Source of the DNA: Escherichia coli 042
Lineage (GTDB): Bacteria; Pseudomonadota; Gammaproteobacteria; Enterobacterales; Enterobacteriaceae
DNA length: 64,000 bases
Assembly (NCBI RefSeq): GCF_000027125.1
Contig: NC_017626.1
Reading direction: 5' to 3' (one strand)
Shown here: positions 3,803 through 15,773 of the stretch, one piece after another
How positions within the stretch are numbered: the first letter of the stretch is position 1
How the letters are laid out: each line of letters starts with the position of its first letter
The notes under the pieces: generated by a model
Told to the model about the DNA's origin: nothing
Database searches by the model: none
The model's input: the letters and a program-made list of their open reading frames with translations, nothing else
Program-made: the position numbers and the translations under genes

Positions 3803-6800
3803 ATGGGCAAAGGAAGCAGTAAGGGGCATATCCCGCGCGAAGCGAAGGACAACCTGAAGTCCACGCAGTTGCTGAGTGTGATCGATGCCATCAGTGAAGG
3901 GCCGGTTGAAGGTCCGGTGGATGGCTTAAAAAGCGTGCTGCTGAACAGTACGCCGGTGCTGGACAGTGAGGGGAATACCAATATCTCCGGCGTCACGGTG
4001 GTGTTCCGGGCAGGCGAGCAGGAGCAGTCACCGCCGGAGGGATTTGAATCCTCCGGTTCCGAGACGGTGCTGGGTACGGAAGTGAAATATGACACGCCGA
4101 TCACCCGCACCATTACGTCGGCAAACATCGACCGTCTGCGCTTTACCTTCGGTGTACAGGCACTGGTGGAAACCACCTCAAAGGGTGACAGGAATCCGTC
4201 GGAAGTCCGTCTGCTGGTTCAGATACAGCGTAACGGTGGCTGGGTGACGGAAAAAGACATCACCATTAAGGGCAAAACCACCTCGCAGTATCTGGCCTCG
4301 GTGGTGGTGGGTAACCTGCCGCCGCGCCCGTTTAATATCCGGATGCGCAGGATGACGCCGGACAGCACCACAGACCAGCTGCAGAACAAAACGCTCTGGT
4401 CGTCATACACCGAAATCATCGATGTGAAACAGTGCTACCCGAACACGGCACTGGTCGGCGTGCAGGTGGACTCGGAACAGTTCGGCAGCCAGCAGGTGAG
4501 CCGTAATTATCATCTTCGCGGGCGCATTCTGCAGGTGCCGTCGAACTATAACCCGCAGACGCGGCAATACAGCGGTATCTGGGACGGAACGTTTAAGCCA
4601 GCATACAGCAACAACATGGCCTGGTGTCTGTGGGATATGCTGACCCATCCGCGCTACGGCATGGGGAAGCGTCTCGGTGCGGCGGATGTGGACAAATGGG
4701 CGCTGTATGTCATCGGCCAGAATTGCGACCAGTCGGTGCCGGACGGCTTTGGCGGCACGGAGCCGCGCATCACCTGTAATGCGTACCTGACCACACAGCG
4801 CAAGGCGTGGGATGTGCTCAGTGATTTCTGCTCGGCGATGCGCTGTATGCCAGTATGGAACGGGCAGACGCTGACGTTCGTGCAGGACCGACCGTCGGAT
4901 AAGGTGTGGACCTATAACCGCAGTAATGTGGTGATGCCGGATGATGGCGCACCGTTCCGCTACAGCTTCAGCGCCCTGAAAGACCGCCATAATGCCGTTG
5001 AGGTGAACTGGATTGACCCGAACAACGGCTGGGAGACGGCGACAGAGCTTGTGGAGGATACGCAGGCCATTGCCCGTTACGGTCGTAACGTCACGAAGAT
5101 GGATGCTTTTGGCTGTACCAGCCGGGGGCAGGCGCACCGCGCCGGGCTGTGGCTGATTAAAACGGAATTGCTGGAAACGCAGACCGTGGACTTCAGCGTG
5201 GGTGCAGAAGGGCTTCGCCATGTACCGGGCGATGTCATTGAAATCTGCGATGATGACTATGCGGGTATCAGCACCGGCGGGCGCGTGCTGGCGGTGAACA
5301 GCCAGACGCGGACACTGACGCTCGACCGTGAAATCACGCTGCCATCCTCCGGCACCACGCTGATAAGCCTGGTTGACGGACAGGGGAATCCGGTCAGCGT
5401 GGAGGTCCAGTCCGTCACCGACGGCGTGAAGGTAAAAGTGAGCCGGGTTCCTGATGGCGTTGCCGAGTACAGCGTGTGGGGGCTGAAGCTGCCGACGCTG
5501 CGCCAGCGCCTGTTCCGCTGCGTGAGTATCCGTGAGAATGACGACGGCACGTATGCCATCACCGCTGTGCAGCATGTGCCGGAGAAAGAGGCCATCGTGG
5601 ATAACGGGGCGCACTTTGACGGCGACCAGAGCGGCACGGTGAATGGTGTCACGCCGCCAGCAGTGCAGCACCTGACCGCAGAAGTCACCGCAGACAGCGG
5701 GGAATACCAGGTGCTGGCGCGCTGGGATACGCCGAAGGTGGTGAAGGGTGTGAGCTTTATGCTTCGCCTGACCGTGGCAGCGGATGACGGCAGTGAGCGG
5801 CTGGTCAGCACGGCCCGGACGACGGAAACCACATACCGCTTCAGGCAGCTGGCTCTGGGAAATTACAGTCTGACAGTCCGGGCGGTAAATGCGTGGGGGC
5901 AGCAGGGCGATCCGGCGTCGGTATCGTTCCGGATTGCCGCACCGGCAGCACCATCGCGGATTGAGCTGACGCCGGGCTATTTTCAGATAACCGCCACGCC
6001 GCATCTTGCGGTTTATGATCCGACTGTACAGTTTGAGTTCTGGTTCTCGGAAAATCGGATTGCGGATATCAGGCAGGTTGAAACCAGCGCGCGTTATCTT
6101 GGCACGGCGCTGTACTGGATAGCCGCCAGTATCAATATCAAACCGGGCCATGATTATTATTTTTACGTTCGCAGTGTGAACACCGTCGGCAAATCGACAT
6201 TCGTGGAGGCTGTCGGTCGGGCGAGCGATGATGCGGAAGGTTACCTGGATTTTTTCAAAGGCCAGATAACCGAATCCCATCTCGGCAAGGAGCTGCTGGA
6301 AAAAGTCGAGCTGACGGAGGATAACGCCAGCAAACTGGAGGAGTTTTCGAAAGAGTGGAAGGACGCCAACGATAAATGGAATGCCATGTGGGGCGTCAAA
6401 ATTGAGCAGACCGAAGACGGCAGGCATTATGTCGCGGGGCTTGGCCTTAGTATGGAGGATACGGAGGAAGGCAAACTGAGCCAGTTCCTGGTTGCCGCTA
6501 ACCGTATCGCGTTTATTGACCCGGCAAACGGGAATGAAACGCCGATGTTTGTGGCGCAGGGCAACCAGATATTCATGAACGAAGTGTTCCTGAAGTATCT
6601 GACGGCTCCCACCATTACCAGTGGCGGCAATCCTCCGGTATTTTCCCTGACACCGGACGGGCGGCTGACGGCGAAAAATGCCGATATCAGCGGTAACGTG
6701 AATGCGAACTCCGGGACGCTCAATAATGTCACGATTAACGAGAACTGTCGGGTTCTGGGAAAACTGTCCGCGAACCAGATTGAAGGCGATCTCGTTAAAA

Positions 6801-7198
6801 CAGTGGGCAAAGCTTTCCCCCGTGACTCCCGTGCACCGGAACGGTGGCCATCAGGGACCATTACCGTCAGGGTTTATGACGATCAGTCGTTTGACCGGCA
6901 AATTGTTATTCCAGCGGTGGCTTTCAGCGGTGCCAGACATGAACGGGAGAATAGCGATACTTATTCGTCATGCCGCCTGATAGTGAAGAAAAACGGGGCT
7001 GAAATTTATAACCGAACGGCTCTGGATAATACTCTGATTTACACGGGTGTTATTGATATGCCTGCAGGCAGTGGCGTAATGACACTGGAGTTTTCGGTAT
7101 CAGCATGGTGGGTAAATGGCTGGTATCCCACAGCAAGTATCAGCGATTTGCTGGTTGTGGTGATGAAGAAAGCCACCGCAGGCATCAGTATCAGCTGA
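3803..7198 (+). CDS. host specificity protein J (central tail fibre), lambda J-like
   Basis: 1131 aa (lambda J is 1132 aa); C-terminal region resembles the recalled lambda J receptor-binding end ([21 protein letters not shown] motif). Confidence 0.85.
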
Positions 7199-7265: not shown

Positions 7266-7865
7266 ATGCGTAAATTATGTGCTGTTATTCTGTCCGCAGT
7301 AGTCTGGCTGGTTGCCGCTGGTACGCCAGCGAGCGCAGCAGAGCATCAGTCCACACTAAGCGCCGGGTATCTTCAGGCCCATACTGATATGCCAGGCAGT
7401 GATGACCTGAAGGGCATTAACGTGAAATACCGTTATGAATTTACGGACACGCTGGGGCTGGTGACGTCATTCAGTTATGCCAATGCCAAAGATGAGCAAA
7501 AAACGCATTACAGCGATACCCGCTGGCATGAAGATTCAGTGCGTAACCGCTGGTTCAGCATGATGGCGGGGCCATCTGTACGCGTGAATGAATGGTTCAG
7601 TGCTTATGCGATGGCAGGTGTGGCTTACAGCCGTGTTTCGACGTTCTCCGGGGATTATCTCCGCGTAACTGACAACAAGGGGAAAACGCACGATGTGCTG
7701 ACCGGAAGTGATGACGATCGCCACAGCAACACGTCTCTGGCGTGGGGAGCTGGCGTGCAGTTTAACCCGACCGAATCCGTGGCCATTGATATTGCTTATG
7801 AAGGCTCCGGCAGTGGCGACTGGCGCACTGACGGTTTCATCGTGGGTGTCGGTTATAAGTTCTGA
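7266..7865 (+). CDS. lom: Lom/Ail/PagC-family outer membrane beta-barrel protein (lambda lom-like moron)
   Basis: 199 aa; signal peptide ending ASA; C-terminal ...GVGYKF aromatic terminus typical of OMPs; position between J and stf as in lambda. Confidence 0.8.
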   Translation: MRKLCAVILSAVVWLVAAGTPASAAEHQSTLSAGYLQAHTDMPGSDDLKGINVKYRYEFTDTLGLVTSFSYANAKDEQKTHYSDTRWHEDSVRNRWFSMMAGPSVRVNEWFSAYAMAGVAYSRVSTFSGDYLRVTDNKGKTHDVLTGSDDDRHSNTSLAWGAGVQFNPTESVAIDIAYEGSGSGDWRTDGFIVGVGYKF

Positions 7866-7923: not shown

Positions 7924-10305
7924 GTGGATATGGCAGCAGTAAAAATCTCAGGTGTGCTGAAAGATGGTGCGGGAAAACCAATACAGAACTGCACTATTCA
8001 ACTGAAGGCAAAGCGTAACAGCACCACGGTACTGGTGAACACGGTGGCCTCTGAAAATCCGGATGAAGCCGGGCGTTACAGCATGGATGTTGAGTATGGT
8101 CAGTACAGCGTCACCCTGCTGGTTGAAGGTTTTCCGCCTTCACATGCCGGGACCATTACCGTCTATGAAGGTTCCAGACCAGGTACGCTGAATGATTTTC
8201 TCGGTGCCATGACGGAAGATGATGTCATGCCGGAGGCATTGCGTCGTTTTGAGGAAATGGTGGAAGAAGCGGCACGCAACGCTGAAGCCGCCTCTCAGAG
8301 CGCAGCGGCGGCAAAGAAATCCGAAACTGCAGCGGCATCATCGAAGAACGCGGCGAAAACCTCAGAAACGAATGCAGCTAACAGCGCACAGGCGGCAGCG
8401 GCCTCGCAGACTGCATCGGCAAACTCCGCAACAGCAGCTAAAAAATCAGAAACCAACGCGAAAAATAGCGAGACAGCCGCAAAGACGAGCGAAACCAACG
8501 CAAAGTCCAGCCAGACGGCAGCGAAGACCAGCGAAACGAATGCCAAAGCCAGTGAAACTGCGGCAAAAAACAGCCAGGTTGCAGCAGCCCAAAGCGAGAG
8601 CGCGGCAGCCGGTTCTGCGACTTCAGCAGCTGGATCAGCAACTGCTACGGCTAACAGCCAGAAAGCTGCGAAGACGAGTGAAACTAACGCAAAGTCCAGC
8701 CAGACGGCAGCGAAGACCAGCGAAACGAATGCCAAAGCCAGTGAAACTGCGGCGAAAAGCAGTCAGGATGCAGCGGCTCAAAGCGAGAGTGCCGCAGCCA
8801 GTTCTGCAAGCGCGGCGGCTGCTTCTGCCACTGCATCAGCTAACAGTCAAAAAGCAGCAAAAACCAGTGAAACCAACGCAAAGGTGAGCGAAACAGCGGC
8901 AGCGAACTCAGCGAAAGCATCGGCAGCAAGCCAGACGGCAGCTAAAGCAAGCGAAGATGCAGCCAGAGAGTACGCAAGCCAGGCTGCGGAGCCGTATAAA
9001 TATGTCTTACAGCCGCTGCCTGATGTGTGGATACCATTTAACGATTCGCTGGATATGATTACGGGCTTTTCGCCGTCATATAAAAAAATTGTTATTGGTG
9101 ACGATGAAATAACGATGCCTGGCGACAAGATTGTTAAGTTTAAACGTGCATCGAAAGCAACCTATATTAACAAATCTGGTGTGCTGACAGAGGCTGCCAT
9201 TGACGAGCCACGATTTGAACGTGATGGCCTGCTTATTGAGGGGCAAAGAACAAACTACATGCTCAATTCGGAAAGCCCTGCCAGTTGGGGGCGATCTTCA
9301 AATATGGATGTGCCCGAAACAGGGACGGATAATTTTGGTTTTACCTATGGAAAGTTTGTCTGCAACGATTCTCTGATTGGGCAAACCTCAGCCATTAATA
9401 TGGCATCAATTGCTGCAACAAAGTCAGTTGATGTCTCAGGCGATAATAAACACGTGACAACCTCATGTCGTTTTAAAACAGAACTGCAGGTAAGGTTGCG
9501 TATCCGGTTTGATAAATATGACGGTAGCGCAACAACTTTTCTTGGTGATGCGTATATTGATACACAAACGCTTGAAATTAATATGACAGGCGGTGCTGCC
9601 TCAAGGATTACAGCGAGAGTCAGAAAGGACGAAGCTACCGGATGGATTTTTGCAGAGGCAACAATTCAGGCAATTGATGGGGAGCTAAAAATAGGCTCTC
9701 AGATACAGTATTCTCCTAAGCAGAGCGGGGCAACCGTATCTGGTGACTATATTTATCTGGCCACCCCACAAGTAGAAGATGGGCCTTGTGTATCATCTTT
9801 TATTATATCAGGAGCGACGGCGGCGACCCGCGCAAGCGATATAGTTACAGTTCCAATTAAGAATAATCTTTATAATCTTCCTTTTACGGTTCTTTGTGAG
9901 GTACATAAGAACTGGTATAAAACGCCAAATGCAGCGCCACGTGTTTTTGATACCGGCGGTCATCAAACCGGAGCGGCTATTATTCTTGGCTTCGGTCGTT
10001 CAACAGATTACGACGGATTTCCTTATTGCGATATTGGAGGAGCTAACAGACGGGTAAACGAAAACGCATCGCTTGAAAAAATGGTTATGGGGATGCGTGT
10101 AAAGTCAGAGCAGTCTACGTGCTCAGTAAGTAACGGGCATATATCCAGCGAAACAAAAACCACATGGTCCTGTATTCAGAACACCGCAATTATCCGTATT
10201 GGAGGCCAGACTACAGCCGGGTTACGTCATTTATTTGGTCATGTCAGGAATTTCAGAATATGGCACAAGGCATTGACTGATGCTCAGGTGGGGGAGTCAA
10301 TCTAA
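7924..10305 (+). CDS. side tail fibre protein (Stf-like) with collagen-like Ala/Ser/Thr repeat shaft and divergent C-terminal domain
   Basis: N-terminal ~100 aa match the recalled lambda Stf N-terminus (MA.VKISGVLKDG.GKP.QNCTIQLKA...); KTSETNAK repeat shaft; C-terminal half (from ~nt 9000) visibly lower GC. Confidence 0.75.
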   Translation: MDMAAVKISGVLKDGAGKPIQNCTIQLKAKRNSTTVLVNTVASENPDEAGRYSMDVEYGQYSVTLLVEGFPPSHAGTITVYEGSRPGTLNDFLGAMTEDDVMPEALRRFEEMVEEAARNAEAASQSAAAAKKSETAAASSKNAAKTSETNAANSAQAAAASQTASANSATAAKKSETNAKNSETAAKTSETNAKSSQTAAKTSETNAKASETAAKNSQVAAAQSESAAAGSATSAAGSATATANSQKAAKTSETNAKSSQTAAKTSETNAKASETAAKSSQDAAAQSESAAASSASAAAASATASANSQKAAKTSETNAKVSETAAANSAKASAASQTAAKASEDAAREYASQAAEPYKYVLQPLPDVWIPFNDSLDMITGFSPSYKKIVIGDDEITMPGDKIVKFKRASKATYINKSGVLTEAAIDEPRFERDGLLIEGQRTNYMLNSESPASWGRSSNMDVPETGTDNFGFTYGKFVCNDSLIGQTSAINMASIAATKSVDVSGDNKHVTTSCRFKTELQVRLRIRFDKYDGSATTFLGDAYIDTQTLEINMTGGAASRITARVRKDEATGWIFAEATIQAIDGELKIGSQIQYSPKQSGATVSGDYIYLATPQVEDGPCVSSFIISGATAATRASDIVTVPIKNNLYNLPFTVLCEVHKNWYKTPNAAPRVFDTGGHQTGAAIILGFGRSTDYDGFPYCDIGGANRRVNENASLEKMVMGMRVKSEQSTCSVSNGHISSETKTTWSCIQNTAIIRIGGQTTAGLRHLFGHVRNFRIWHKALTDAQVGESI
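8461..8900 (+). repeat. in-frame 189-bp tandem direct repeat (~2.3 copies) inside the side tail fibre gene
   Basis: CAAAGTCCAGCCAGACGGCAGCGAAGACCAGCGAAACGAATGCCAAAGCCAGTGAAACTGCGGC occurs at 8501 and 8690; unit starts near 8461, 8650, 8839. Confidence 0.75.
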
Positions 10306-10586
10306 TGAAAGATTTAACACTCAAATTTGCCGACAGGGCCGACTTTTCGGCCTTTATGGATAGCACTGGCTATTATGATGACGAGTCGATGCAGGATGAT
10401 ATTCTTATTGACGTGATAGGTAACGTGTACAAAGAAACCGGAGAACTGACTGAAGATGGCGAACCGGTATGTGTTAAGGAAGACGGATATTTTGTAAACG
10501 TGCGCATCATTAATGATTCGCAAATATCGTCATTATTCGATGAATACGTGGTTGCTGTTGAGCATCAACTTCGTGGCTGGATGTGA
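10305..10586 (+). CDS. hypothetical protein, translationally coupled to the tail fibre gene (possible fibre assembly/chaperone factor)
   Basis: 93 aa acidic protein; ATG overlaps the stf stop (TAATG); no recognised motif. Confidence 0.4.
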   Translation: MKDLTLKFADRADFSAFMDSTGYYDDESMQDDILIDVIGNVYKETGELTEDGEPVCVKEDGYFVNVRIINDSQISSLFDEYVVAVEHQLRGWM

Positions 10587-10595
10587 GGAAGAAAA

Positions 10596-11636
10596 ATGGC
10601 TACATCGACAGTAATTCCTGATGACATCAAAACGCTAAAATCCGACGTTAGCAAATTAAAAAACGATCAAGGAAGCTACGCAACAAAATTATATGTAGAC
10701 AGCAAAGATGAAATCGTTGGTGACTGGTCTGCTTCATGGTATCAGCAGGTATTGCCAACTAGCGGAGCTATATTTGGGAGAAAACTCCGCTCAACTCACA
10801 GGACGGCAGGTGTTGAGGATGCGTATTGCGAACTATACCTCAAAAAATGGATAGACAGTCCAGGTAACGCAATGGCGCGCCTTAACCTGAACGATAACGG
10901 GACAAACATTTGCTGGGACTTTACCAACCTTTATGGCGGTACGATGATTTTTCCCGGTGACAGCGGATACCTCAAAATGGGTAACTGCCTTATGTCATAC
11001 AGCAAGCGTGGAAGTAACGCGCTTATTAAATTTGATTACACCGACACATTACAGATCAAATATGCCAATCATGGGTCAACCATGACATTAAACACACAGG
11101 GAACCGCTTATGCTGGTGTTACTGCTCAATTGTGGGGCAACACCAGCCGTCCTGTTGTTTATGAAGTCGGTGTTGATGGTGGCGCTTATATGTTCTATGC
11201 GCAGAAAAATACCGATAACACCTATATGTTAAGCGTTAATGGTGCATGTCATGCCACCGCATTTAACCAGCATTCCGACCGGGATCTGAAAGACAACATT
11301 CAGGTGATCGATAATGCAACCGACCGCATCCGTAAAATGAACGGCTATACATACACGCTTAAAGAAAACGGTATGCCCTATGCTGGTGTCATTGCACAGG
11401 AAGCTCTGGAAGCAATCCCAGAAGTTGTAGGTTCCGCAATGAAATATCAGGACGGTGCGAGCGGATCGGAAGGTGAAGAAGGTGAACGTTATTACACAGT
11501 AGATTATTCTGGTGTTACTGGCTTGCTTGTTCAGGTAGCCAGAGAGTCAGACGACAGAATAACAGCACTGGAAGAAGAAAACGCAGAATTAAGACAAAGA
11601 TTATCTGCAATTGAGGCGGCGCTTGCGTCTAAATAA
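10596..11636 (+). CDS. tail fibre/spike protein with C-terminal intramolecular chaperone (peptidase S74-like) domain
   Basis: 346 aa; GAGGAAG SD upstream; C-terminal HSDRDLKDNI motif matching the S-D-x-R-x-K-x-N-I autocleavage signature, followed by a coiled-coil tail. Confidence 0.6.
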   Translation: MATSTVIPDDIKTLKSDVSKLKNDQGSYATKLYVDSKDEIVGDWSASWYQQVLPTSGAIFGRKLRSTHRTAGVEDAYCELYLKKWIDSPGNAMARLNLNDNGTNICWDFTNLYGGTMIFPGDSGYLKMGNCLMSYSKRGSNALIKFDYTDTLQIKYANHGSTMTLNTQGTAYAGVTAQLWGNTSRPVVYEVGVDGGAYMFYAQKNTDNTYMLSVNGACHATAFNQHSDRDLKDNIQVIDNATDRIRKMNGYTYTLKENGMPYAGVIAQEALEAIPEVVGSAMKYQDGASGSEGEEGERYYTVDYSGVTGLLVQVARESDDRITALEEENAELRQRLSAIEAALASK

Positions 11637-11642
11637 TATTAA

Positions 11643-11665
11643 GGGGCCGAGCGCCCCGTTTTATT
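11643..11665 (+). terminator. hairpin plus T tract after the fibre gene
   Basis: GGGGCCGAGCGCCCCG followed by TTTTATT. Confidence 0.4.
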
Positions 11666-11678
11666 GGGTAGGATGAAA

Positions 11679-11972
11679 ATGGATATAACACCTTTCCTTC
11701 ATGCGCTTTGTGCTGTGGCTGCGCAGCTACTGATTGGTCTTTTTACCGGGAACTGGGCTTACGGGGCGATAGCCGGTTGTACGTTCTTCATTGCGCGTGA
11801 ACACACCCAGGCAGAATATCGCTGGATCGAAATGTTCGGGCATGGCAAGCGAATGAATATGCCGTGGTGGGGCGGTTTTGATCCGCGTGCATGGGATGTG
11901 GCAAGCCTGATGGATTTTGCTGTGCCGGTGGTGGCGTGTCTGCTGGTCTGGCTGTTGGTTAATCGTGGGTGA
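11679..11972 (+). CDS. small hydrophobic (probably membrane) protein, unknown function; prophage moron position
   Basis: 97 aa from the ATG with AGGA 6 nt upstream (longest frame from 11664); two to three hydrophobic segments; no known motif. Confidence 0.4.
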   Translation: MDITPFLHALCAVAAQLLIGLFTGNWAYGAIAGCTFFIAREHTQAEYRWIEMFGHGKRMNMPWWGGFDPRAWDVASLMDFAVPVVACLLVWLLVNRG

Positions 11973-12323
11973 AAAAAGGTGAGCTGTATATGCAACGGAG
12001 GAAGAAACCCCGTTGCTGGAAGCCTGGAAAAAGTATCGGATGCTGCTGAACCGTGTTGATACATCAACTGCACCTGATATTGAGTGGCCTACGAACCCTG
12101 TCAGGGAGTAATCATTGGGATTATGCCGCAGAAACGTTGTATGCAATAACGTTCTGCGGTTGGCTGATGCACTTTCGAGAGTGCATGTATTGAATTATTT
12201 CCAGCTATTATCGATTTTACGTATTTTTTGCATGAGAGAATTTGTACCTCCTCCCAACAACGACCTTCCATGACTTTCCGGACTTCTGTGGGCCAGCGGA
12301 CGATGCTGCCCTCGGATGTTGTG

Positions 12324-13181
12324 CTAATTGGGTGATGACAAATCCTGTGTATGGGTGTTTCCCTTTGTGCGTGCGTTGATGCTGGTAACGGTGAACGTCA
12401 TGATGAACACAACCGCGAATAAGACGACAATCGTCGGAGCTGGTGCACTGTCGATAAAAAAGGACAACCAGACACCAGTCATTGACACTATTACCGATAT
12501 GCCAATCGCCAGTAGGAGCGCAATATGAAAGCGTTGTGTCAGGAGTACCGCAATGGCGCCAGGCGCAATGAGCAGAGAAATGGAGAGAATGATACCTACC
12601 GCTTTCAGCGTCGCCACAATGGTCAGAGAGACCATGCACAGCAGCCCATAATGCAGACATCTCGTATGCAAACCGCTTACCTGCGCCTGTTGATAATCAA
12701 AGCTGAACAGCAAAAAATCCCGCCATTTTACGCTAATAACAAGTGTAACCAACCCGGCAATAATCACCGTCTGGATTATATCGCCGATGGTTACCCCGAG
12801 CATGTCGCCGAAAAGAATATGGTCAAGATGTACGTCTGGTTTGACTGCAATATACAAGATCAGACCTGCGGCAAACATGCCAGAAAAAACAATCCCCATC
12901 ACTGTATCTTGCTTGATTCGGCTGTTGTCTTTCAGGTATCCCGTCGCCACCGCGCAGAATACTCCGGCGACGAATGCCCCTGTAGCCAGAGGTAACCCCA
13001 GAATCCAGGCAAGCACGATGCCAGGAAAAACCGCATGACTCATCGCGTCACCCATCAGTGCCCAACCTTTCAGGACCAGAAAGACCGACAGCAGCGCACA
13101 GGGTATGGAAACTACCAGTGAAATCAGCAGTGCGTGACTCATAAAGGTGAACTGCAGTGGCTCCAGTAATAATGCCATCAT
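12324..13181 (-). CDS. sitD: Mn/Fe ABC transporter permease SitD
   Basis: 285 aa polytopic membrane protein; second of two paralogous permeases; 4-nt overlap with sitC. Confidence 0.85.
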   Translation of the reverse strand: MMALLLEPLQFTFMSHALLISLVVSIPCALLSVFLVLKGWALMGDAMSHAVFPGIVLAWILGLPLATGAFVAGVFCAVATGYLKDNSRIKQDTVMGIVFSGMFAAGLILYIAVKPDVHLDHILFGDMLGVTIGDIIQTVIIAGLVTLVISVKWRDFLLFSFDYQQAQVSGLHTRCLHYGLLCMVSLTIVATLKAVGIILSISLLIAPGAIAVLLTQRFHIALLLAIGISVIVSMTGVWLSFFIDSAPAPTIVVLFAVVFIMTFTVTSINARTKGNTHTQDLSSPN

Positions 13182-14035
13182 GAGCGATCCTCCAGCGCTT
13201 TATGCGCACGCCGACGATTTGCCAAAAGCCCATGGGTGGGCGCAAATACAAATGCTAAAAGAAACAGCAGTGTCTGCGCCACCACGATGATTCCACCTGT
13301 CGCGCCGTCCAGAAAGTAACTGACCCACGCGCCGAGGAAACTGGTTACACTGCCAATAGTTACAGCAATTATGAGCAGGCGGGGAAAATGATCGGTTAAC
13401 AACCATGCTGTTGCACCGGGAGTCACCACCAGACAGATCACCAGAAAGGCACCAACCGTTTGCAGCGCCGCAACGGTCGAAACCGACAGCAGGGTGAAGA
13501 AGAGGATTTTTAATCTGCCCGGATGCAATCCAATAGCACGAGCGTGATTCTCGTCGAAAAAGGTCACCATAAGATCTTTCCATTTGAAAAAAAGCACGAT
13601 GATCGAGAGAATGCCAATGATAGTGAGTTGCAGGATATCCGCCGGATCGATTGCCAGAATATTGCCCAGGACGATGGTCTGAATGTTCACGGATGTCGGG
13701 TTCAATGACACCATAAACAGCCCCAGGCCAAAAAAGGAGGAGAAGATCAGGCCGATGATGGCATCTTCTTTTAAGCGAGTGCGTTGGTTAAGAAACAGCA
13801 TGCTGCCCGCTGCCAGTCCGCCGGAAAAGAAGGCTCCCAGAGAAAACGGAAGCCCCAGCATATATGCCCCCGCAACACCCGGGACAATAGAGTGCGACAG
13901 CGCATCGCCAATCAGCGACCAGCCTTTTAGCATCAGATAGCATGACAGGAAAGCGCAGAGACCGCCGACCATCGCCGAGACCCACATCGCATTGAGCATA
14001 TATTCATAGCTGAAGGGTTCCAGTAGCACGTTCAT
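13178..14035 (-). CDS. sitC: Mn/Fe ABC transporter permease SitC
   Basis: 285 aa, ABC-3 type permease; overlaps sitB and sitD ends. Confidence 0.85.
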
Positions 14036-14859
14036 CTTGCTTCCCCCTGCACCGCTGACGGTCGATGTGCCACAAAAGGGTGTTCATCGTCAGTAATAAT
14101 GCTTTCTTCCGAGCCGTTAAGTGTGACATGGCGCAGTACGCCGCTAAAAGCCAGCTCCAGGTTCTCGGCTGTAAAAGTGGTGTCTGTCGGCCCGCTTGCC
14201 AGGACGGTGCCTTTGACCATGACCGTATAATCGCAAAATGTCGTGACTGAGCCGAGATTGTGCGTTGAGACAAGCATCGTCTTGCCTTCCGCGCGTAACT
14301 CCCTCAACAGGCTGATGATTTTCGCTTCGGTTTTCACATCAACGCCGGTAAAAGGTTCATCCAGCAGGATCACATCACCCTGCTGTGCAATCGCTCTCGC
14401 CAGAAAGACGCGTTTCTTTTGTCCACCGGAAAGCTCGCCGATTTGTCGATGGCGAAAATCCACCATATCGACACGTTCCAGCGCATCGGTGACAATCTGA
14501 CGATCCCTCTTTTTGGCTATACGCAACATACCCATGTGCCCATAGCGGCCCATCATCACCACATCTTCCACTAGTACAGGAAATGACCAGTCAACCTCTT
14601 CTGACTGAGGGACGTAGGCAACCAGGTTTTTCTGTAGCGCCTGTCGCGTGGGAATACCCAGAACAGATATCTTTCCGCTGGTCAGACGGACAAATCCCAT
14701 AATCGCTTTAAACAACGTCGATTTTCCGGAACCGTTTACCCCAACCAGAGCGGCAATAGATCCACTTGGTACTGTGAAGGATGCATCGCGCAGTGCTGTG
14801 TGCCCGTTACGCCAGGTGACAGTAACATCATTAACGACAATGCCCGCAGATTGCATCAT
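14032..14859 (-). CDS. sitB: Mn/Fe ABC transporter ATP-binding protein SitB
   Basis: 275 aa; Walker [13 protein letters not shown] signature LSGGQKKR, Walker B ILLDEP. Confidence 0.9.
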
Positions 14860-15773
14860 TATTTCTCCCTTTTCCCGGCTTTAATTCCCTGTACCAGCGT
14901 ACTGGTAGTAACCTTCAGAAGGTCGATATACGTAGGTACCGGGCCGTTTTCTGTGCTCAGGGAATCGACATAGAGTACACCGCCGTAGTGCGCGCCGGTT
15001 TCACGCGCAACCTGACGCGCTGGTTTATCGGAAATCGTACTCTCGCTAAAGACTGCCGGGATATGATTTTTCTTCACCATATCAACAACCTTACGTACCT
15101 GCTGCGGCGTGCCTTGTTGATCGGCATTAATCGGCCACAGATAAAGCTCTTTTAGCCCCAAATCGCGTGCGAGATAAGAAAAAGCCCCTTCACTGGTGAC
15201 CATCCATCGCTGATTCTCAGGGAGTTCAGCAATCTGCTTACGCAGGGGGGCAAGGGTTTGGGTAATCTTGGCTTTATAAGTATCGGCATTACGTTGGTAG
15301 GTTTGTGCATTTGCCGGATCGTATTTTATCAACGCATCACGAATATTATCGACATAAATCAGAGCATTATCTGGCGACATCCAGGCATGGGGGTTAGGTT
15401 TGCCCTCATAGGGTCCTTCGGTGATCCCTACTGGCGTCACACCCGAAGAGACAATTACTTCTGGAACCCCATTGAGATGTTGGTAAAAGCGTTGGAACCA
15501 CAATTCCAGATTCATACCATTGGCGAGAATCAGTTGTGCCCCCTGCGCACGTTTAATATCTCCAGGGGTAGGCTGATACTCATGAATTTCTGCACCAGGC
15601 TTGGTTATGGATGAGACTTCTGCAGCATCTCCAGCCACGTTTTTGGCCATATCCGCGATGATGGTAAATGTTGTAATGACCTTGAATTTTTCAGTTGCAC
15701 TTGCCTGAAATGCGATCGAGCAGGTGAGGGCGAGGCACCCCAAGAGCATGGTTACTTTTTTTATTGAGTGCAT
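14859..15773 (-). CDS. sitA: periplasmic Mn/Fe-binding protein SitA (cluster 9 / TroA-like)
   Basis: 304 aa with signal peptide; first gene of a four-gene co-directional operon. Confidence 0.85.

Follow-up and report, generated by a model that had tools for sequence, protein, structure and literature searches.

Introduction

Two-part lateral tail fibers, in which a distal protein is carried by a proximal one, have been described in phages such as the T5-like IrisVonRoten (Bas32) and DT57C. In IrisVonRoten, the AlphaFold-Multimer models of the BASEL-2 authors present gp22 as a proximal fiber that carries gp24, a distal protein with a chaperone domain, and a galectin-like domain protrudes at the C-terminus of gp22 (10.1101/2024.09.12.612763). 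In DT57C, the attachment of the second fiber protein via the first is supported both genetically and structurally (PMC4728585, PMC10713586), and LtfA docks on the small protein LtfC, whose sheets are augmented by short N-terminal strands located before the coiled coil of LtfA (PMC10713586). As a module for folding and self-cleavage, the peptidase S74 domain occurs on many non-enzymatic fibers, e.g., T5 Ltf and DT57C LtfA and LtfB (PMC4728585). For the side tail fiber (Stf) of lambda, a chain from Ur-lambda (9e7m) serves as the structural reference (PMC12617516). Here, we analyzed a three-gene tail fiber locus in a stretch of 64,000 nucleotides from Escherichia coli 042 (RefSeq assembly accession: GCF_000027125.1; contig NC_017626.1), referred to as "the window" and numbered from its first letter. 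The window contains the tail end of a lambdoid E. coli prophage that resembles phage 21.

The locus consists of a gene for a Stf-like protein of 793 amino acids (aa), an open reading frame (ORF) of 93 aa, and an ORF of 346 aa. We consider that its products probably form the outer half of a two-part side tail fiber, with Stf as the proximal fiber, the 93-aa protein as an assembly factor, and the 346-aa protein as a distal fiber with an S74 domain. The cassette is a known and widespread type of two-part lateral fiber, and public phage and E. coli records already contain its sequences. No paper that we found takes up the role of the small overlapping protein, and papers on the Gifsy-1 Stf and on lambda-Stf chimeras contained nothing on the cassette.

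The Stf-Like Proximal Fiber

The N-terminus of Stf contains the tail-attachment domain PF08400 (Pfam, E = 7e-67) and matches the Ur-lambda Stf chain 9e7m (E = 7.5e-49). Lambda orf-401, the N-terminal part of Stf, aligned with window positions 7936–8763 with 58.6% identity over 304 aa; lambda orf-314 (distal Stf) had no tblastn match in the window, and only 39 codons of tfa were left, in which positions 11992–12108 were 84.6% identical to aa 156–194 of lambda Tfa. This agrees with a preliminary description of the locus, made from the sequence before any database search, which had regarded the fiber as a mosaic with a swapped module in place of the lambda stf–tfa pair, and the host receptor as unpredictable from lambda. 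Because the fiber is mosaic, the orf-314 homologue is absent, and tfa is only a remnant, the receptor cannot be read from lambda. The same description had placed a low-GC block after stf. The block is real, with a GC content of 0.42–0.45 vs. 0.53–0.57 in J, lom, and proximal stf, but it starts inside stf, at about codon 441, and ends at the stop codon of the 346-aa ORF.

Among 65 alleles, Stf was conserved at aa 1–440 (including segment 341–440) and aa 761–793, and variable at aa 441–760. The variable part is a lectin-like domain, and the NCBIfam model NF048003 (head-spike-fiber domain) matches aa 437–637 (E = 3.3e-13). The C-terminal tail, aa 761–793, contains GGQTTAGLRHLFGHVRNFRIWHKALTDAQ, and a motif of the form RHLFGH.RNFRIWH..LTD closed the proximal fiber in all 14 loci compared. 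The C-terminal 424 aa of Stf are 63% identical to IrisVonRoten gp22. Stf has neither an S74 intramolecular chaperone domain nor an intact Tfa partner, so another factor must fill the chaperone role.

The shaft of Stf is formed by SETNAK-type repeats. On the + strand at window positions 8200–8900, these tandem repeats (SETNAK/KTSETNAK) produce an extreme AT skew of up to 0.61, and they also give rise to long ORFs that are spurious, both in the remaining reading frames and on the complementary strand. The lectin-like domain of some metagenomic phages does not form the C-terminus of a long fiber but a protein of its own, of ~610 aa (locus L091, 95–1197; locus L090, 3163–5303). In L091, another lectin-like protein follows a gene of ~100 aa, which hints at modules of a tip plus a small protein arranged in tandem.

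The Small Overlapping Protein

As had been described, an acidic ORF of 93 aa (pI 4.05) starts in the stop codon of stf, in the sequence TAATG. This overlap couples the translation of stf and the 93-aa ORF. An overlap of 1 or 4 nucleotides between the small ORF and the fiber stop codon was found in 14 of 14 diverse loci and in every IMG/VR locus that lists both genes intact. The conservation of the ORF, on which the preliminary description partly depended, was confirmed. The protein matched PHROG 1361 (E = 7e-46), and 95 cluster representatives with E ≤ 1e-3 were found when 1.8 billion proteins were searched. The median ratio of nonsynonymous to synonymous substitution rates (dN/dS) was 0.27 over 831 pairs, and the ORF is therefore under purifying selection. 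Three long proteins that were also matched by the 93-aa profile, P0287 (PKD repeats), P0309 (C-type-lectin repeats), and P0318 (bearing Mtd_N), were treated as spurious because the first two are repeat proteins.

The conserved motifs of the family are M.D..LKF, D.IG, GYHVN.R, and RVWA. The 93-aa protein had no match in Pfam or NCBIfam, and no similarity to Tfa-type chaperones was found, with no detectable relation to lambda Tfa. AlphaFold2 (AF2) modeled it with confidence as a small alpha/beta protein (predicted local distance difference test [pLDDT], 92.4; predicted template modeling score, 0.79), and a fold search with this model gave no significant match.

In the loci examined, the fiber gene ahead of the ~90-aa ORF always ended in the domain RHLFGH.RNFRIWH..L.D. 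The small gene is kept without a third gene in phage 21, ev017, ev207, Perceval, PhiR57_1, and the metagenomic L090, and also in the rV5-like phage JeffSchatz. Because phages without the third gene retain it, the 93-aa gene is part of the proximal-fiber module and not of the module of the S74 gene. The preliminary description had listed it as a coupled ORF ahead of a second fiber-like gene; both genes are present, but the small one belongs with the gene before it, and the 346-aa protein is more likely to be a distal or branch subunit of the side fiber than an independent second fiber. Judging from the sequence, the 93-aa protein is most likely an assembly chaperone or a joint protein for the lectin-like tip. 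For the ~90-aa family as a whole (PHROG 1361), which is common to lambdoid, T5-like, Drexlerviridae, Dhillonvirus, Nonagvirus, and rV5-like phages, we see about an even chance that it is an unrecognized fiber-assembly or joint protein for RNFRIWH-ended lectin-like fibers, taking the place of Tfa or of an intramolecular chaperone.

The 346-aa Protein and Its S74 Domain

The preliminary description had identified an S74 signature and a C-terminal coiled-coil tail in the 346-aa protein, and the profile searches support the S74 domain. Pfam Peptidase_S74 (PF13884) matched residues 227–278 with E = 4.8e-14 and 52.8 bits vs. a cut-off of 22, which is far above the cut-off and therefore not a chance match. 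The motif HSDRDLKDNI occupies residues 226–235, with Ser227 at 11274–11276 and Lys232 at 11289–11291, and S227, D228, R229, and K232 were ≥ 90% conserved in an alignment of 26 relatives. When the profile of these relatives was compared with the PDB, it matched the chaperone domain of S16 gp37 (6f45, E = 5.3e-10) and the autoprocessing (intramolecular chaperone auto-processing, ICA) domain of the eukaryotic MYRF (7dc3, E = 1.5e-4). The same profile matched the knob modules of T4 gp34 (E = 3.5e-7) at residues 166–221, just upstream of the S74 domain. The Prokaryotic Genome Annotation Pipeline (PGAP) names the relatives "tail fiber domain-containing protein" or "pyocin knob domain-containing S74 family peptidase." A helical tail was modeled at aa 304–345, in a low-confidence AF2 monomer with an overall pLDDT of 60.6.

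Based on these features, we infer that the protein cleaves itself at Ser227. The predicted cut would yield a mature chain of 226 residues and 24.9 kDa and a domain of 120 residues. The protein is also expected to form a trimer.

Distribution of the Cassette in Phages and Escherichia coli Genomes

Of 5,426 complete E. coli genomes, 392 contained at least 80% of the 3.15-kb block. Many E. coli chromosomes have it with 99.7% identity, and its DNA is 98.9–99.5% identical in the phages 2G7b, Tritos, HannyBb, and PhiR63_1; the 93-aa and 346-aa proteins are 100% identical to their Tritos counterparts, the latter being gp21. The possibility that the cassette is a decayed remnant of a defective prophage was rejected, given the proteins identical to those of Tritos and the presence of the block in 2G7b, HannyBb, and PhiR63_1.

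More distant forms of the trio were found in several phage groups. The virulent Nonagvirus ESCO3 holds it with 94% DNA identity; in Drexlerviridae, it occurs in phage tunus and in loci L093 and L095; and in T5-like phages, it occurs in the uncultured L096, with LtfC just upstream, and in IrisVonRoten as gp22–gp23–gp24. The trio of the Dhillonvirus KarlBarth has a distal protein with the N-terminal motif and no S74 domain, and the trio of a distant enterobacterial prophage (L087) has one with S74 and no such motif. The comparison with related fiber loci that had been proposed in the preliminary description thus indicates that this prophage is not alone in having the cassette, which is common to T5-like, Drexlerviridae, Nonagvirus, and Dhillonvirus phages. 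When tblastn was run with no more than the 51 N-terminal residues, the search was too insensitive to reach the T5-like phages. An alignment of phage 21, which has no third gene, with the window revealed no remnant and no direct repeat at the junction, and this is compatible either with the gain of the third gene here or with its loss in phage 21.

Modular Exchange of Alleles

Using the 93-aa protein as the query, 80 loci were gathered from IMG/VR. The 93-aa gene was 90–100% identical among them, and the C-terminal domain of Stf was 40–100% identical. The third gene, which lies between the 93-aa gene and a membrane-protein gene, was either of the 346-aa type (75–100% identity) or of a ~234-aa type. 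A third ORF was present in 69 loci (46 distinct sequences), and all of these ORFs begin with MA[TI]STVIP.DI..LK; all complete third genes had an S74-type Ser...Lys motif near the C-terminus. Around the nearly invariant 93-aa gene, the alleles of Stf and of the third gene assort independently. For example, the Stf tip is 40% identical and the third gene 100% identical in L033, and the tip is 100% identical and the third gene 75% identical in L042. Within the 346-aa alleles, residues 35–130 (down to 42% identity) and 166–226 (down to 64%) vary and are shuffled independently, and the N-terminus, residues 131–165, and the chaperone domain stay conserved. Variable cassettes between conserved linkers are the usual signature of receptor-binding cassettes.

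Other variants of the third gene were also observed. The ~234-aa type (L016, L029, L046, and others, at ~5292–5996) has the same N-terminal motif and a predicted cleavage site at Ser116, which would leave a mature protein of only ~115 aa that is largely a coiled coil with a very small tip; a comparable version of 245 aa occurs in phage tunus. In PhiR47_1 (L005, 4020–5060), the third gene is split into 294 and 37 aa by an apparent frameshift or nonsense mutation within the chaperone domain. This phage was isolated on ECOR13 despite the split gene, which suggests that the distal protein is dispensable on some hosts.

Proposed Assembly and Alternative Explanations

We propose the following assembly. 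The lambda-type N-terminal domain would anchor Stf to the tail, and Stf would end in its variable lectin-like domain. The 93-aa protein, produced in coordination with Stf via the overlapping stop and start codons, would be a dedicated assembly chaperone or a small structural partner of the lectin-like tip. The 346-aa protein would form a short trimeric fiber, whose N-terminal motif and coiled coil may dock on the proximal fiber, possibly through the 93-aa protein. The S74 domain would drive trimer folding and would then cut itself off at Ser227 by means of a Ser227/Lys232 dyad, leaving a mature subunit of ~25 kDa. The variable patches at aa 35–130 and 166–226 probably bind a surface glycan, e.g., O-antigen or lipopolysaccharide (LPS).

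Four points weigh against this assembly. The binding of the 346-aa protein to Stf or to the 93-aa protein is a prediction from sequence. Covariation with the variable Stf domain, which might be expected of a tip-specific chaperone, was not seen for the 93-aa protein. The S74 protein of prophage L087 has no anchor motif. Finally, the AF2 monomer of the 346-aa protein is poor, and the fold search made with it is meaningless.

The second of these points also favors another explanation, in which the 93-aa protein is mainly an adaptor in the virion that sits on the conserved C-terminal tail of Stf and captures the N-terminal strand of the 346-aa protein, e.g., by beta-strand augmentation, to form the joint of the fiber. 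The docking of DT57C LtfA strands on the small LtfC is a precedent, and the three most conserved elements of the locus (the 33 C-terminal aa of Stf, the 93-aa gene over its full length, and the ~32 aa at the start of the third gene) are contiguous, with variable cassettes on both sides. However, this contiguous conservation could simply represent recombination linkers between cassettes, the anchor motif is unchanged while the small protein diverges to 35% identity, and phage 21, ev017, ev207, Perceval, PhiR57_1, and L090 hold an intact overlapping 92-aa gene without any third gene. We regard a role mainly as an adaptor as rather unlikely.

That the 346-aa protein is an independent short fiber on the tail tip or J, i.e., a separate second receptor-binding organelle, appears improbable to us. 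Its gene does have a ribosome-binding site and a start codon of its own, and its alleles and those of Stf assort independently. Against this, the distal proteins with the anchor motif (in IrisVonRoten and other T5-like phages, Drexlerviridae, ESCO3, and KarlBarth) were, among the loci examined, always encoded directly after a fiber gene ending in RHLFGH.RNFRIWH..L.D and a ~90-aa ORF. Moreover, the tail tips of these phages are unrelated (lambdoid J, T5 pb4/LtfC, and those of Drexlerviridae), and the fiber locus of Drexlerviridae is far from J. The docking partner common to all of these phages can therefore only be the fiber, the 90-aa protein, or the pair, in line with a distal subunit carried by the proximal fiber.

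It is scarcely credible that the 346-aa protein is a capsule-degrading enzyme or a capsule-opening "endosialidase chaperone," as the Pfam family name, "Chaperone of endosialidase," might suggest and as the 92% identical ESCO3 orthologue (ESCO3_00080; L003, 5587–6642) was read when it was described as enabling capsule degradation (PMC10269720), since no glycosidase or depolymerase domain was found in it, S74 being the only Pfam match above the cut-off, its mature part is only 226 aa of coiled coil, beta-rich region, and gp34-like knob, and S74 modules, as noted above, occur on many fibers that are not enzymes.

Genomic Context of the Locus

The positions of the features are summarized in Table 1. 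Downstream of the cassette, the 97-aa membrane protein was 91–100% identical regardless of the fiber alleles that preceded it, and it is also present in phage 21; its gene is a conserved flank for the exchange of the third gene, and the protein may be a moron or an exclusion factor. The tfa remnant marks the site where the distal part of the original stf–tfa was replaced. The sitABCD operon has the same position in phage 21, and a literature search on phage 21 with sitABCD turned up no paper. In strain 28Eco12, sitA is followed by uspF, ompN, and nifJ, which are chromosomal genes.

Table 1. Positions of the fiber genes, their subregions, and the neighboring features in the window.
Feature	Position	Strand	Remarks
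J	3803–7198		
lom	7266–7865		
Stf-like gene, 793 aa from GTG at 7924	7924–10305	+	PGAP start 2 codons further in
Low-GC swapped block, stf codon ~441 through the 93-aa and 346-aa genes	9244–11636	+	GC 0.42–0.45
TAATG stop/start overlap, stf to 93-aa ORF	10303–10307	+	Stop TAA 10303–10305, ATG 10305–10307
93-aa acidic ORF	10305–10586	+	
346-aa ORF, GAGGAAG ahead of start	10596–11636	+	
N-terminal anchor motif MATSTVIPDDIKTLK and short coiled coil, aa 1–34	10596–10697	+	Conserved across phage families
Variable patch 1, aa 35–130, candidate receptor-binding surface	10698–10985	+	Alleles down to 42% identity
Knob domain (T4 gp34/pyocin-like), variable patch 2, aa 166–226	11091–11273	+	Alleles 64–100%
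S74 intramolecular chaperone domain, aa 227–346	11274–11633	+	Pfam and profile matches
GC-rich hairpin then T-run, terminator-like, end of fiber operon	11643–11657	+	
97-aa membrane protein with two transmembrane segments, PHROG 1443	11679–11972	+	Downstream flank of variable third gene
tfa 3' remnant, 39 codons, lambda-type	11992–12111	+	PGAP pseudogene
sitDCBA iron/manganese ABC transporter, phage cargo directly downstream of fiber genes	12324–15773	-	

Implications

The receptor-binding parts of this prophage family, which carries sitABCD and is common in extraintestinal E. coli, are two cassettes that can be exchanged independently and are shared with virulent phages; lambda (OmpC) therefore gives no basis for inferring the adsorption specificity of the family. 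The 94% DNA identity with the virulent ESCO3 shows recent traffic of fiber modules between prophages and phages that are considered for therapy. The label "endosialidase chaperone" on orthologues has already produced a mistaken claim of capsule degradation; in ESCO3, that claim derives only from the Pfam family name, because no glycosidase domain is present in the protein. Being conserved in at least six phage groups, the small overlapping protein offers an inexpensive and clearly defined subject for experiments on the assembly of lectin-tipped fibers.

Comparison With Known Systems

The closest described system is that of IrisVonRoten, which has the same order of three genes and a small ORF that overlaps the fiber gene. 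Its gp23 (92 aa) is 38% identical to the 93-aa protein (E = 3e-24), and its gp24 starts with MVTKTVIPTDITKLK, vs. MATSTVIPDDIKTLK here, so that the two distal proteins share the motif M.T.T.IP.DI..LK as well as a C-terminal chaperone domain. The systems differ in the attachment of the proximal fiber, which depends on the T5 Ltf N-terminus and LtfC in IrisVonRoten and on the lambda-type PF08400 domain here. They also differ in the distal protein, which has 574 aa and T-shaped dual receptor-binding domains in gp24 and 346 aa with a single knob-type tip here. The host element also differs, being a temperate lambdoid prophage here.

The branched LtfA/LtfB fibers of DT57C and DT571/2 are similar in having two proteins, the second attached via the first, a self-cleaving pfam13884 domain on the distal protein, and modular specificity. 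In DT57C, however, S74 domains end both LtfA and LtfB and the paper on these fibers mentions no small gene between them, whereas the proximal fiber here has a lectin-like end without S74 and is followed by the 93-aa gene. Lambda (Ur-lambda) Stf–Tfa shares the N-terminal attachment domain, the proximal repeats, and the position after J and lom; in place of orf-314 and an intact Tfa, the locus here has a lectin-like tip, the 93-aa protein, and the S74 fiber.

Phage 21 (Jouyvirus) resembles the prophage in its Stf tip (54% identical), its 92-aa overlapping ORF (54%), its 97-aa membrane protein (96%), and the downstream sitABCD, but it lacks the third (S74) gene, and the membrane-protein gene directly follows the 92-aa gene. 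Finally, T5 Ltf/pb1, the K1F endosialidase, and S16 gp37 share the C-terminal self-cleaving chaperone domain with its Ser/Lys dyad and helical tail. Unlike in these proteins, the S74 domain of the locus described here belongs to a separate and very short protein that itself lacks a tail-attachment domain.

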